Shown here one piece after another: positions 5,616 through 7,780 of a stretch of 11,692 nt of DNA (position 1 is the first letter of the stretch; each line of letters opens with the position of its first letter). Location: UHGV virus genome UHGV-0121323. One strand, 5' to 3'. The notes beneath the pieces were generated by a model. It was not told where the DNA came from. It made no database searches and saw only the letters and a list, made by a program, of their open reading frames with translations. The stretch comes from a virus. The translations under genes were made by a program, and so were the position numbers.

Positions 5616-7041
5616 TTTTTATGCGCCGCCCCATAGCATCGAGGCAGAGCAGGCGGTGATTGGTGGATTGCTTCTGGATGATGACAGCAGTGAGCGCGTC
5701 CAGAAAGTTCTGGCGATGCTGAAGCCTGATTCATTTTACTGCCGACCACACAAAATCCTTTTCGAAGAAATAACCAGAATGCACCGGGAGCAAAAGCCAG
5801 TAGATGGCCTGACGCTTTTCGATGAACTGGAGCGTAAATCGTTAACGGCGTCTGTTGGCGGTTTTGCTTATATCGCTGAGATCGCAAAGAACACGCCAAG
5901 CGCAGCAAACATCGTTGCCTATGCAATGCAGGTTCGTGAAACCGCAATGGAACGCTACGCCATCAACCGCATGACTGAAGCGACGGAATTGCTCTATTCC
6001 CGCAATGGAATGACTGCAACGCAGAAGTACGAAGCTATTCAGGCGATTTTCACGCAACTGACAGACCATGCAAAAACCGGATCGCGTCGCGGCCTTCGCT
6101 CATTTGGTGAGGTCATGGAAGGCTGGGTTAGCGACCTTGAGAAGCGATTTGACCCATCAGGCGAACAACGGGGAATGAGCACAGGGATCCCATCGCTGGA
6201 CAGGATGCTGTCACCGAAAGGTCTGGTGAAAGGCTCTCTGTTTGTCATTGGCGCTCGCCCTAAGATGGGGAAAACGACGCTATACAGCCAGATGGCAATC
6301 AACTGCGCAGTGCATGAGAAAAAGCCCGCTCTGATGTTCAGCCTTGAAATGCCAGGTGACCAGATACTGGAAAAACTGGTGGGACAGAAGTCAGGTGTTA
6401 ACCCGAATATTTTTTACCTTCCGGCGACAAATGACGCTGATGACGGCTATCAGGGTGATTACGATGGTGACTTCAACAGGGCGATCGAAACAGCCAATCG
6501 CTTGAGTGAAATCGACCTGCTTTACATCGACGACACGCCGGGATTATCTCTGGCTCAAATCGTCAGCGAAAGCCGTCGAATCAAGCGAGAAAAAGGATGT
6601 GTTGGCATGATTCTGGTCGATTACCTGACACTAATGACCGCTGAGAAGGCCGATCGCAACGACCTTGCTTACGGCATGATCACCAAAGGACTGAAGAACC
6701 TTGCCAAAGAGCTTGATTGCGTTGTTGTGCTTCTGACACAACTTAACCGCGCACTGGAAAGCCGAACCAATAAACGCCCGTTACCAAGTGACTCACGAGA
6801 TACAGGGCAGATTGAACAGGATTGCGATTATTGGGTTGGGATCCATCGGGAAGGTGCTTTTGATGACAGCGTTCCTCCTGGTGAAACCGAACTAATCCTT
6901 CGTCTCAATCGTCATGGCAATACCGGCACGGTGTATTGCATTCAGGCAAATGGAGCTATTTATGACACAGACCAACAGTCTGCTGAAATGCGCCGCCGTG
7001 AACGCGAGGAACCGCAGTCCAAGAAGAAAGGAGGATTCTGA
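5605..7041 (+). CDS. Replicative DNA helicase, DnaB family (P22 gene 12-like)
   Basis: Translation MTDNFYAPPHSIEAEQAVIGGLLLDD... (DnaB N-terminal signature), Walker A GARPKMGKT, Walker B-like ILVDYLTLM; ATG at 5605 overlaps the initiator's stop. The track start at 5590 is an upstream extension. Confidence 0.9.
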   Translation: MTDNFYAPPHSIEAEQAVIGGLLLDDDSSERVQKVLAMLKPDSFYCRPHKILFEEITRMHREQKPVDGLTLFDELERKSLTASVGGFAYIAEIAKNTPSAANIVAYAMQVRETAMERYAINRMTEATELLYSRNGMTATQKYEAIQAIFTQLTDHAKTGSRRGLRSFGEVMEGWVSDLEKRFDPSGEQRGMSTGIPSLDRMLSPKGLVKGSLFVIGARPKMGKTTLYSQMAINCAVHEKKPALMFSLEMPGDQILEKLVGQKSGVNPNIFYLPATNDADDGYQGDYDGDFNRAIETANRLSEIDLLYIDDTPGLSLAQIVSESRRIKREKGCVGMILVDYLTLMTAEKADRNDLAYGMITKGLKNLAKELDCVVVLLTQLNRALESRTNKRPLPSDSRDTGQIEQDCDYWVGIHREGAFDDSVPPGETELILRLNRHGNTGTVYCIQANGAIYDTDQQSAEMRRREREEPQSKKKGGF

Positions 7042-7124
7042 TGACCATCTACATCACTGAGCTTGTAACAGGCCTGCTGGTAATCGCAGGCCTTTTTATT
7101 TGGGGGAGAGTAAATCGTGGTTGA
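7041..7124 (+). CDS. Putative single-pass membrane micro-protein (27 aa)
   Basis: Strong AGGAGGA RBS (7028..7034) 6 nt before the ATG at 7041, which overlaps the helicase stop (TGATG); translation MTIYITELVTGLLVIAGLFIWGRVNRG. Below the track cut-off. Confidence 0.4.
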   Translation: MTIYITELVTGLLVIAGLFIWGRVNRG

Positions 7125-7323
7125 GTTGATTTTCTCTGCATTGAGGCTTCTCGGTGCTCTGTGGATGGTGGCGACGTTCATTGTGGTTGCTGGCTGTTTT
7201 GTCCGGTTGGTAGGCGAAGGTAAAGACATGGTGGGTGTGCTTTTCGGTAGCATTCTCATGTGGGTTATTATCGGTGTTATGCCTGTCGCTGTAGCAAAAA
7301 TGGCGTGGCGTTTTGTGAGTTGA
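7117..7323 (+). CDS. Putative two-helix small membrane protein (68 aa)
   Basis: Track ORF; GTG start at 7117 preceded by GGGGAGAG, overlapping the end of the 27-aa ORF; translation MVELIFSALRLLGALWMVATFIVVAGCFVRLVGEGKDMVGVLFGSILMWVIIGVMPVAVAKMAWRFVS has two hydrophobic segments. Confidence 0.5.
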   Translation: MVELIFSALRLLGALWMVATFIVVAGCFVRLVGEGKDMVGVLFGSILMWVIIGVMPVAVAKMAWRFVS

Positions 7324-7340
7324 ACTGAGGGTAAGTATCG

Positions 7341-7610
7341 ATGGACGAATCAAGAAAGCAGTTTGAAGAATGGTTTGAAAATTACACCGGATGTGATCCT
7401 AAAAATAAAATATACGCCAATATGGTTGAGATGTATTGGCAAGCGTGGCAGGCATCGCGAGCAGCTATTGAAATAACCGCGCCAAAGTTTATCGACAGCA
7501 GAGAAGCATTAGCCAAAGGGTTTACTGTTGATTATTCCAATGGCTTCGGTGATGCAATGGATGCTTATGAGGAAAATATCAGCGCTGCTGGAATCAAAGT
7601 GAAGGAGTGA
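7341..7610 (+). CDS. Hypothetical protein (89 aa), nin-region
   Basis: Track ORF; GAGGGT upstream of the ATG at 7341; soluble and Trp/Tyr-rich (MDESRKQFEEWFENYTGCDPKNKIYANMVEMYWQAWQ...). No family recognised. Confidence 0.55.
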   Translation: MDESRKQFEEWFENYTGCDPKNKIYANMVEMYWQAWQASRAAIEITAPKFIDSREALAKGFTVDYSNGFGDAMDAYEENISAAGIKVKE

Positions 7611-7612
7611 GT

Positions 7613-7765
7613 ATGAGCGGAATAATAACCGGCATAGCAGCTGGCATGTGCGCTGGCTCAGCAGTCGCCGCAATCCTCTGGGATGAAGAGTGGAATTTGC
7701 GGACGTTTATCAAATATCAGGTTGCGGCACTTGGGATTGTTTCTGCAATGTACATTCTGAGGTGA
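7613..7765 (+). CDS. Putative small membrane protein (50 aa) with a Gly/Ala-rich helix
   Basis: AAGGAG (7602..7607) lies 5 nt before the ATG at 7613; translation MSGIITGIAAGMCAGSAVAAILWDEEWNLRTFIKYQVAALGIVSAMYILR. Below the track cut-off. Confidence 0.45.
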   Translation: MSGIITGIAAGMCAGSAVAAILWDEEWNLRTFIKYQVAALGIVSAMYILR

Positions 7766-7780
7766 GTATGAGGCCAACTT

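Follow-up and report, generated by a model that had tools for sequence, protein, structure and literature searches.

The window analysed here is a metagenome contig of 11,692 nt (UHGV-0121323; ENA ERZ651884 NODE_2684) that carries a lambda-like early region in the order N (on the - strand), cI, cro, cII, O, a DnaB-type helicase gene, ninA, a NinB-position gene (DUF1367), NinG, a phosphatase gene, and Q. We examined the interval 7027-7770, which lies directly behind the helicase gene and contains four open reading frames (ORFs) of 27, 68, 89, and 50 aa, designated ORF-A to ORF-D. An earlier note had described them as a run of translationally coupled genes, three for small membrane peptides and one for a soluble protein. 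All four were present, as were the TGATG overlap at the helicase stop, the AGGAGGA ribosome-binding site (RBS), and an 8-nt overlap of the second ORF with the first, and hydropathy agreed with the description of three hydrophobic ORFs, their helix features, and a soluble 89-aa protein. It is likely that ORF-A is ninA with the terminator tR2, that ORF-B, ORF-C, and ORF-D are real genes with a lytic-phase position, and that the interval forms the part of a lambdoid nin region nearest the promoter.

ORF-A (7041-7124, +; ATG at 7041, TGA at 7122-7124) encodes the 27-aa peptide MTIYITELVTGLLVIAGLFIWGRVNRG. By sequence comparison, it is the known ninA frame spanning the lambda terminator tR2 and not a new membrane micro-gene. 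The helicase TGA (7039-7041) and the ORF-A ATG have one A in common, and the Shine-Dalgarno sequence AGGAGGA (7029-7035, +) lies within the last helicase codons, 5 nt upstream of the ATG. The intrinsic terminator tR2 (7070-7101, +) consists of the stem AGGCCTGC/GCAGGCCT (7070-7077/7086-7093), an 8-nt loop, and the tail TTTTATTT (7094-7101), and covers about codons 10-21 of ninA. A terminator scan assigned 8 bp with 6 GC pairs to the stem and revealed that 6500-8500 contains no + strand intrinsic terminator other than tR2. The free energy of the folded hairpin is -15.7 kcal/mol (z = -3.6); folding of the 101-nt region gave no RNA structure beyond this hairpin (z = 0.1), and an Rfam scan of the whole window gave no family. 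Hydropathy located one hydrophobic stretch in ORF-A, and its core, GLLVIAGLFIW, is hydrophobic mainly because the stem, the loop, and the T-tract of tR2 are read in frame. The earlier note, which regarded ORF-A as a tiny membrane-peptide gene, had overlooked the terminator inside it. Directly behind tR2, the sequence GGGGGAGAG (7102-7110, +) is the Shine-Dalgarno sequence of the gene that comes next, here ORF-B, whose GTG follows after 6 nt, and ORF-A ends 8 nt inside ORF-B.

ORF-A matched phrog_5907 (E 1e-18), and 7041-7110 was identical to lambda 40567-40636 at 67 of 70 nt, with the hairpin and the T-tract fully identical. The lambda ninA/tR2 (40567-40647) and NinA of P22, HK620, and HK630 occupy the same place in the pR operon, and NinA of HK620 and HK630 has 27 aa, as here. 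In lambda, the frame (MTIYITELITGLLVIAGLFIWGRGKS) is joined by ATGA overlaps to the stop of ren and to the start of ninB, the same start-on-stop and stop-on-start overlaps as in the window, whereas the upstream gene in the window is the DnaB-type helicase gene (TGATG) instead of ren. The NinA tail is GRGKS in lambda and GRVNRG here, since the downstream module is ORF-B, not ninB. The earlier note had assumed that the four ORFs fill the space of lambda ren and the first nin genes. This was not the case: ren lies upstream of tR2, and the slot is the junction from tR2 to ninB, which is empty in lambda. ninA was reportedly named in 1982, and its annotation varies among records. The HK620 record has an 84-nt ninA with tR2 annotated inside, the HK630 record has a 'NinA protein', the mEp235 record annotates the terminator alone, and the lambda RefSeq record annotates nothing at the ninA frame.

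The 70-nt ninA/tR2 module was detected in ~2000 of 5426 complete E. coli genomes, downstream of ren, two helicase types, HNH, and MarR genes; it was absent from the DLP12 prophage of E. coli K-12 between renD and emrE. Among the 121 IMG/VR loci with the exact tR2 hairpin, 115 kept an in-frame ATG 29 nt upstream of the hairpin. The genes upstream of this ATG belong to seven unrelated classes (Ren, two DnaB-helicase types, a primase-helicase, and three small proteins), and in all seven the upstream stop is on or next to the ninA ATG (ATGA in five classes, TGATG in one, TAAATG in one), with a GGAG-type motif 5-9 nt before the ATG in each. At the other end, the frame closes within a few nt of the next gene's start in every downstream context, and the G-rich tract found here also lies before ninB in lambda and before each of the alternative downstream genes of the IMG/VR loci. 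The slot after tR2 holds several alternative small genes in other phages, some with N-terminal membrane helices, for example those of 108 aa (MADWQIPIIILAGASLVAGFILL...) and 90 aa (MKDLLVTLNVGLSLLGYAYIMF...).

Further variants were found when the search was anchored on the N-terminal codons of ninA instead of the hairpin. It was revealed that four hairpin sequences (three types, one of them with a compensatory variant), all followed by a T-tract, are located at one codon position, with z from -3.6 to -5.4. The second type, GGGGCTAYT...AGTAGCCC with a T-tract, is the one for which a compensatory variant exists. The third type, 10 bp with a T-tract at the same codon position, is found in a diverged 27-aa ninA homologue of Intestinirhabdus alba (MIAYIAETLTGLSVTVAFFICIRNRVR; locus L161, 2913-2996), which has an ATGA overlap with its upstream gene. 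Since the open frame persists with different hairpins, including that of I. alba, the frame and the terminator are co-conserved. In the I. alba locus, ORF-D with a GTG start comes directly after the ninA homologue, and loci L154 and L155 are arranged likewise. Gene 56 of HK022 (L002, 2142-2246) keeps the ninA N-terminus and has an AT-rich sequence in place of tR2 (z = -0.8); it encodes the hydrophobic 34-aa peptide MTIYITELIAGLSLLMVLTVYIIKYILYANKKTN. The peptide itself is not constant. Truncated forms of 20-24 aa occur, 5 of the 9 N-terminal codons of the I. alba homologue differ non-synonymously, and in seven IMG/VR loci the first base of the tR2 loop is altered (CTG to CAG), which puts a Gln midway along the hydrophobic stretch. 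These comparisons thus point to weak selection on the sequence of the ninA peptide itself. Six IMG/VR loci had the exact tR2 hairpin and T-tract behind an unrelated upstream sequence without a ninA start (context AAAAATCTAAAAGGACTCGAAAGCGTGTTAAAAACAGATAA), indicating that the terminator can move without the frame.

ORF-B (7117-7323, +; GTG start, TGA at 7321-7323) encodes 68 aa and matched the uncharacterised phrog_1165 from end to end (residues 1-68 on profile 1-68 of 68; E 5.7e-35). Its 205 homologue clusters, nearly all of 68 aa and every one labelled 'hypothetical', come from E. coli, Salmonella, E. albertii, and E. marmotae. The median ratio of non-synonymous to synonymous substitution rates (dN/dS) over 24 unique nucleotide sequences was 0.35, compared with 0.76 and 1.07 in the shifted frames. 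The length was 68 aa in all 24, and one further locus was frameshifted. Judged by these comparisons, ORF-B is a genuine gene under purifying selection. The GTG start was kept in 21 of 21 unique sequences, whereas the internal Met17 was Ile in 7 of the 21; thus, the 68-aa form is the correct one. mEp235_046 (L001, 2766-2924) and HK630_052 (L159, 1066-1224) are annotated from the internal ATG as 52-aa proteins, and the HK620 record leaves the gene unannotated. Hydropathy revealed two hydrophobic stretches, and the AlphaFold model has helices at residues 2-33 and 38-67 with a predicted local distance difference test score (pLDDT) of 81. ORF-B is thus predicted to be a conserved two-helix membrane hairpin, and its charge distribution suggests that both ends face the cytoplasm.

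ORF-C (7341-7610, +) follows ORF-B after a 17-nt gap with its own GAGGG and encodes an acidic, soluble protein of 89 aa (grand average of hydropathy -0.63). It matched phrog_343 (E 5e-28). PF26207 (Phage_phiTE_015) is among the precomputed Pfam hits for this exact gene, whereas hmmscan against our local Pfam copy gave no match, and RefSeq names the homologues 'phiTE_015 family protein'. The family keeps MDESRKQFE at the N-terminus, WQASRAAIEI at the centre, and IRAAGIKVKE at the C-terminus. Between these blocks lie hypervariable segments with variation in length (81-117 aa; L001, L002, L147-L157), and they drive the pooled ratio of non-synonymous to synonymous polymorphism (pN/pS) of 0.73. A sequence search of PDB gave a chance match only, and a literature search retrieved nothing on phiTE_015. 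From its sequence matches, ORF-C is a soluble phiTE_015-family protein. It is a partner-like neighbour, located at a fixed spacing after ORF-B in 22 of 26 loci. The same B-then-C order is found in HK022 genes 56-59, where ORF-B corresponds to HK022_58 (68 aa), and in mEp235 genes 046-047; ORF-C groups with HK022_59 and mEp235_047. HK022 differs from the window in that no terminator is present in its ninA-like gene 56, behind which lies an additional gene of 203 aa, and none of HK022, mEp235, and HK630 has ORF-D.

ORF-D (7613-7765, +; ATG at 7613, TGA at 7763-7765) begins 2 nt past the stop of ORF-C, is preceded by AAGGAG (7602-7607), and encodes 50 aa. Scans against PHROG, Pfam, NCBIfam, and PADLOC assigned it to no family, and its gene body had no match in 50,697 phage records by tblastn and sensitive blastn. 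In a large protein database it had 8 homologue clusters of 72-92% identity, all of 49-50 aa, and only 3 clusters were present among 1.84 billion representatives at 50% identity. The carriers were one GTDB species representative and three IMG/VR contigs. Its dN/dS was 0.10 at a dS of ~1.2, compared with 1.3 and 1.7 in the shifted frames. On this evidence, ORF-D is a genuine gene under purifying selection that belongs to a rare and previously uncatalogued family. According to hydropathy, its first helix is a glycine zipper (G3-x3-G7-x3-G11-x3-G15) and a second, shorter stretch follows; G7 is invariant, the other glycines are mostly kept, and the loop WDEEWNLRTFIKYQ is the most conserved part. 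AlphaFold placed helices at residues 2-22 and 26-49 (pLDDT 81), and a two-helix membrane hairpin is predicted for ORF-D as well, probably with both ends in the cytoplasm as for ORF-B. The repeated GxxxG pattern of helix 1 suggests oligomerisation.

ORF-D is found in nin regions, nearly always 2 nt past a phiTE_015 stop, while its other neighbours vary. In the window it is bracketed by an 11-nt direct repeat, GTGAGTATGAG, which is a stop/start junction between nin modules. The left copy (7607-7617, +) comprises the ORF-C stop and the ORF-D start, and the right copy (7762-7772, +) the ORF-D stop and a leftover ATG at 7768. This junction is also found before ninB in mEp235 and before ORF-D in 9 loci. 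From this arrangement, ORF-D looks like a cassette inserted at a nin junction. The equivalent of ATG 7768 starts the next gene 2 nt after ORF-D in L151 and L152, while here it opens merely a 21-codon frame that overlaps the start of the DUF1367 gene.

The conservation and dN/dS analysis that the earlier note had proposed, with the ninA ATG kept in most loci, low dN/dS for ORF-B and ORF-D, and frames and lengths kept in relatives, argues for its claim that these are not chance ORFs; they are very probably translated. Its picture of a coupled run applies in part. The junctions are of the coupled type usual in nin regions. The helicase gene and ORF-A, ORF-A and ORF-B, and ORF-C and ORF-D overlap or abut, whereas ORF-B and ORF-C are separated by 17 nt and ORF-D and the next gene by 15 nt, each downstream gene having its own Shine-Dalgarno sequence. 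The 27-aa and 50-aa ORFs indeed fall under the 60-aa cut-off of the ORF track, whereas only ninA is missed by standard annotation on this contig; the metagenome pipeline called the 68-aa and the 50-aa genes.

As far as can be judged from comparison with other phages, the interval is made of independent mosaic modules: ninA/tR2, ORF-B (with or without ORF-C), and ORF-C with ORF-D. A co-evolved operon of ORF-A, ORF-B, and ORF-D was considered and rejected, since the modules recur separately in other phages, and the three membrane genes do not form the one set that had been proposed. A consensus scan revealed no promoter-like site on either strand within 7027-7770, and over the wider range 6500-8500 it detected no promoter on the + strand. 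Since ORF-B, ORF-C, and ORF-D are located behind tR2 in an N-dependent pR operon with no promoter-like site nearby, they would be delayed-early lytic genes, and their position makes expression from a repressed prophage unlikely. Read-through of tR2 requires N, whose gene lies at 1851-2174 on the - strand (its translation begins MDAQTRRRERRAEKQAQWKAAN); its arginine-rich motif is of the lambda type. We consider that ORF-B, ORF-C, and ORF-D may be accessory genes, dispensable like the other nin genes and made only in lytic growth after N antitermination, and that ORF-B and ORF-D would most likely act at the inner membrane of the infected cell and not in the lysogen.

The behaviour of tR2 has been measured in lambda. 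The natural sequence upstream of tR2 contains the NinA translation initiation site, which is 'not weak' (PMC4824070); the basis given there is Kroger and Hobom (1982) and a lambda ribosome-profiling study, both as cited in that paper. Mutation of the RBS or the AUG of ninA altered reporter expression, and silencing of the NinA start shifted the efficiency of tR2 by only ~10%, because the ribosome cannot catch the polymerase within 30 nt (PMC4824070). The efficiency was ~0.8 at 18 bp from the stop codon and ~0.9 beyond 30 bp, and a ribosome close behind the polymerase can nearly abolish termination (PMC4824070). In the window, the distance from the helicase stop to the hairpin is 28 nt. Termination at tR2 yields non-stop messages, which halved the expression of the upstream reporter (PMC4824070). 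Without N, transcription past tR1 halts completely at tR2 (PMC7084815). The nin genes, ninA among them, are dispensable according to published work and have been called a 'chain of interlinked genes' (Kroger and Hobom 1982, as quoted in PMC4824070; described in PMC8022706). The window shares with that chain tightly packed small genes, overlapping stops and starts, non-essentiality, and high mosaicism; it differs from a typical nin region in the selection of modules and not in kind.

Identity with lambda and the presence of an N gene suggest N-sensitive termination and ninA translation in this phage as well. Rightward transcription without N would end at tR2 and leave the downstream genes silent. 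On N-modified read-through transcripts, ninA may carry coupled translation across the terminator and thereby bring ribosomes to ORF-B. On terminated transcripts, the ninA frame would have no stop codon, so that ribosomes would stall and the message would be cleared by non-stop rescue. We put forward these bridging and non-stop roles, as well as any specific membrane action of ORF-B or ORF-D, only tentatively and regard them as rather less probable than not. An additional role for the 27-aa NinA peptide is possible and is not required.

One may ask whether the ninA frame is a gene at all or an accidental opening through a module that consists of tR2 only. No coding sequence is annotated there in lambda RefSeq, in mEp235, or by the gene caller for this contig; the six IMG/VR loci have the exact hairpin with no ORF upstream; truncations to 20-24 aa and the Leu-to-Gln change are tolerated; and the peptide N-terminus is poorly conserved in I. 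alba. It is, however, difficult to reconcile an accident with an ATG on or next to the stops of seven unrelated upstream genes, each with a Shine-Dalgarno sequence, with a frame that stays open to within a few nt of the next start in every downstream context and across three hairpin types and a hairpin-less variant, or with the altered reporter expression after RBS or AUG mutation in the lambda sequence (PMC4824070). An accidental frame is thus very unlikely. At the opposite extreme, NinA might be a functional single-pass membrane peptide acting in trans, with the terminator fitted into its coding sequence. An Arg/Lys-rich tail behind a hydrophobic core is common to all variants, HK022 retains a hydrophobic peptide with a basic tail (MTIYITELIAGLSLLMVLTVYIIKYILYANKKTN) without any hairpin (z = -0.8), and there is a mild synonymous excess in codons 2-10 (7 of 13 distinct alleles, p = 0.03). 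The GC-rich stem and the T-tract, however, yield Gly, Leu, Ala, Phe, and Ile in frame regardless of selection, and the sequence and length of the tail vary with the downstream module. Leu-to-Gln and premature-stop variants exist, the I. alba homologue differs non-synonymously at 5 of 9 N-terminal codons, and a peptide made from a tR2-terminated, non-stop message would be tagged for degradation (PMC4824070). A trans-acting NinA is therefore unlikely in our view. The hairpin inside a translated frame also resembles leader-peptide attenuators such as that of pyrBI, in which a short translated frame overlaps an intrinsic terminator, and the nearly complete loss of tR2 activity with a close-following ribosome (PMC4824070) and the upstream stop just 28 nt from the hairpin would fit a model in which translation through the hairpin decides termination. 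The measured dependence on NinA translation is nevertheless small, the natural upstream sequence already gives an efficiency of ~0.8 at 18 bp (PMC4824070), and lambda read-through is controlled by N (PMC7084815), which is present in this phage; folding of the 101-nt region gave no evident alternative antiterminator structure. We rejected the attenuator model on these published measurements and regard it as highly improbable.

The hydrophobic ORFs had also been proposed to be coupled membrane peptides for superinfection exclusion, membrane depolarisation, or toxin-like action. All three are hydrophobic and conserved, and the glycine-zipper helix of ORF-D is of a kind that occurs in pore-forming helices. 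T4 Imm and Sp, early-expressed small membrane proteins that are able to exclude superinfecting phage, provide a precedent, and T4 Imm/Sp, lambda RexB/SieB, P22 SieA, and HK97 gp15 are all small phage proteins with one or two membrane helices. In sequence and fold searches, the window ORFs showed no similarity to these proteins. Pfam, NCBIfam, and PADLOC scans of ORF-A, ORF-B, and ORF-D gave no family, the PHROG matches obtained had no functional annotation, and a literature search gave no match to the peptide sequences. When the ORF-B and ORF-D models were compared with BFVD by Foldseek, no match reached an E value below 1; small helical hairpins are uninformative in such a search. In respect of a type I toxin (Hok/TisB-like), there was no own promoter within 7027-7770, no Rfam family, and no sequence-family match, and no antisense promoter or terminator frames an independent cassette. 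The G3/G7/G11/G15 spacing of ORF-D helix 1 is a likeness to the glycine-zipper helices of holins and pinholins; ORF-D differs from them in that it is located upstream of Q in the early operon and not in a lysis cassette downstream of Q, and there was no holin family match. The exclusion genes of prophages are active in the repressed state, whereas the window genes lie behind pR and tR2 in an operon controlled by repressor and N. The three genes are not found together as one group, and the hydrophobicity of ORF-A is accounted for by the terminator. An exclusion or toxin role for the small membrane genes thus finds no support, and we consider it improbable.

Several points weigh against the interpretation of the interval as ninA/tR2 followed by N-dependent accessory genes that translation through ninA would reach. 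The synonymous excess in ninA codons 2-10 is a hint of peptide selection, and HK022 retains a hydrophobic 34-aa ninA version without a hairpin. The case for translation in this phage is drawn from comparison or from lambda, and the bridging role of ninA is one that we infer. ORF-B may not need coupling, because it has a good Shine-Dalgarno sequence of its own. The topology and the membrane location of ORF-B and ORF-D are predicted from hydropathy and AlphaFold models (pLDDT ~81), and the promoter scan was a crude consensus search, so that a weak internal promoter is possible.

It is conceivable, if a long way from probable, that the ninA arrangement is a selected dual-coding device and not an accident: a translated mini-frame, joined stop-to-start to whichever genes flank it, with an intrinsic terminator ~30 nt from its beginning. 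The arrangement persists across three hairpin types and at least seven upstream genes. If such a device operates, read-through transcripts would couple translation of the replication genes with that of the nin genes, whereas the terminated non-stop message would recruit ribosome rescue and cut the life of the cro-cII-O-P transcript. Early gene dosage would therefore depend on N status. That ORF-D is a new glycine-zipper partner of the phiTE_015 protein is a separate proposal, to which we assign a similarly low probability.

Of the genes in the interval, ninA with tR2 has long been known, and the families of ORF-B and ORF-C are catalogued but uncharacterised; the small, rare ORF-D family was previously uncatalogued and is of a familiar kind. 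For annotation, a hydrophobic micro-ORF right behind a lambdoid replication gene calls first for a comparison with tR2 and ninA, since the RNA hairpin and the T-tract dictate the amino-acid composition there. The comparative data strengthen the case for real translation of ninA and for its start and stop as a universal splice point in mosaic exchange. ORF-B, which is common in E. coli and Salmonella prophages, and the rare ORF-D, which is not in PHROGs, are solid candidates among the poorly explored small phage membrane proteins; the data indicate no particular or unusual function.

The genes that flank the interval are of lambdoid types. The replicative helicase gene at the 'P' position (5590-7041, +), whose TGA overlaps the ninA ATG, has a 96% nucleotide match to the helicase genes of mEp235, HK022, and HK630, and Pfam DnaB/DnaB_C are among the precomputed hits for the same contig. 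The NinB/Orf-position gene of the DUF1367 type (7781-8230, +), which is the next nin gene and bounds the interval, starts 15 nt past ORF-D and matched phrog_319 (E 5e-56) and PF07105 (E 8e-21). A strong - strand terminator inside the 3' end of cII (4493-4520) is at the position of the lambda oop terminator, and a strong + strand terminator just past Q (10407-10427) is at the position of tR'. The gene caller left a 342-nt gap between the DUF1367 gene and NinG, in which two frames are located, 8237-8413 and 8386/8410-8580. The former is a very basic ORF of 58 aa (MGKQRRSITQ...), and the latter is Cys-rich and resembles lambda NinD. The first of these frames ends in a GTGA overlap with the possible GTG start of the second.

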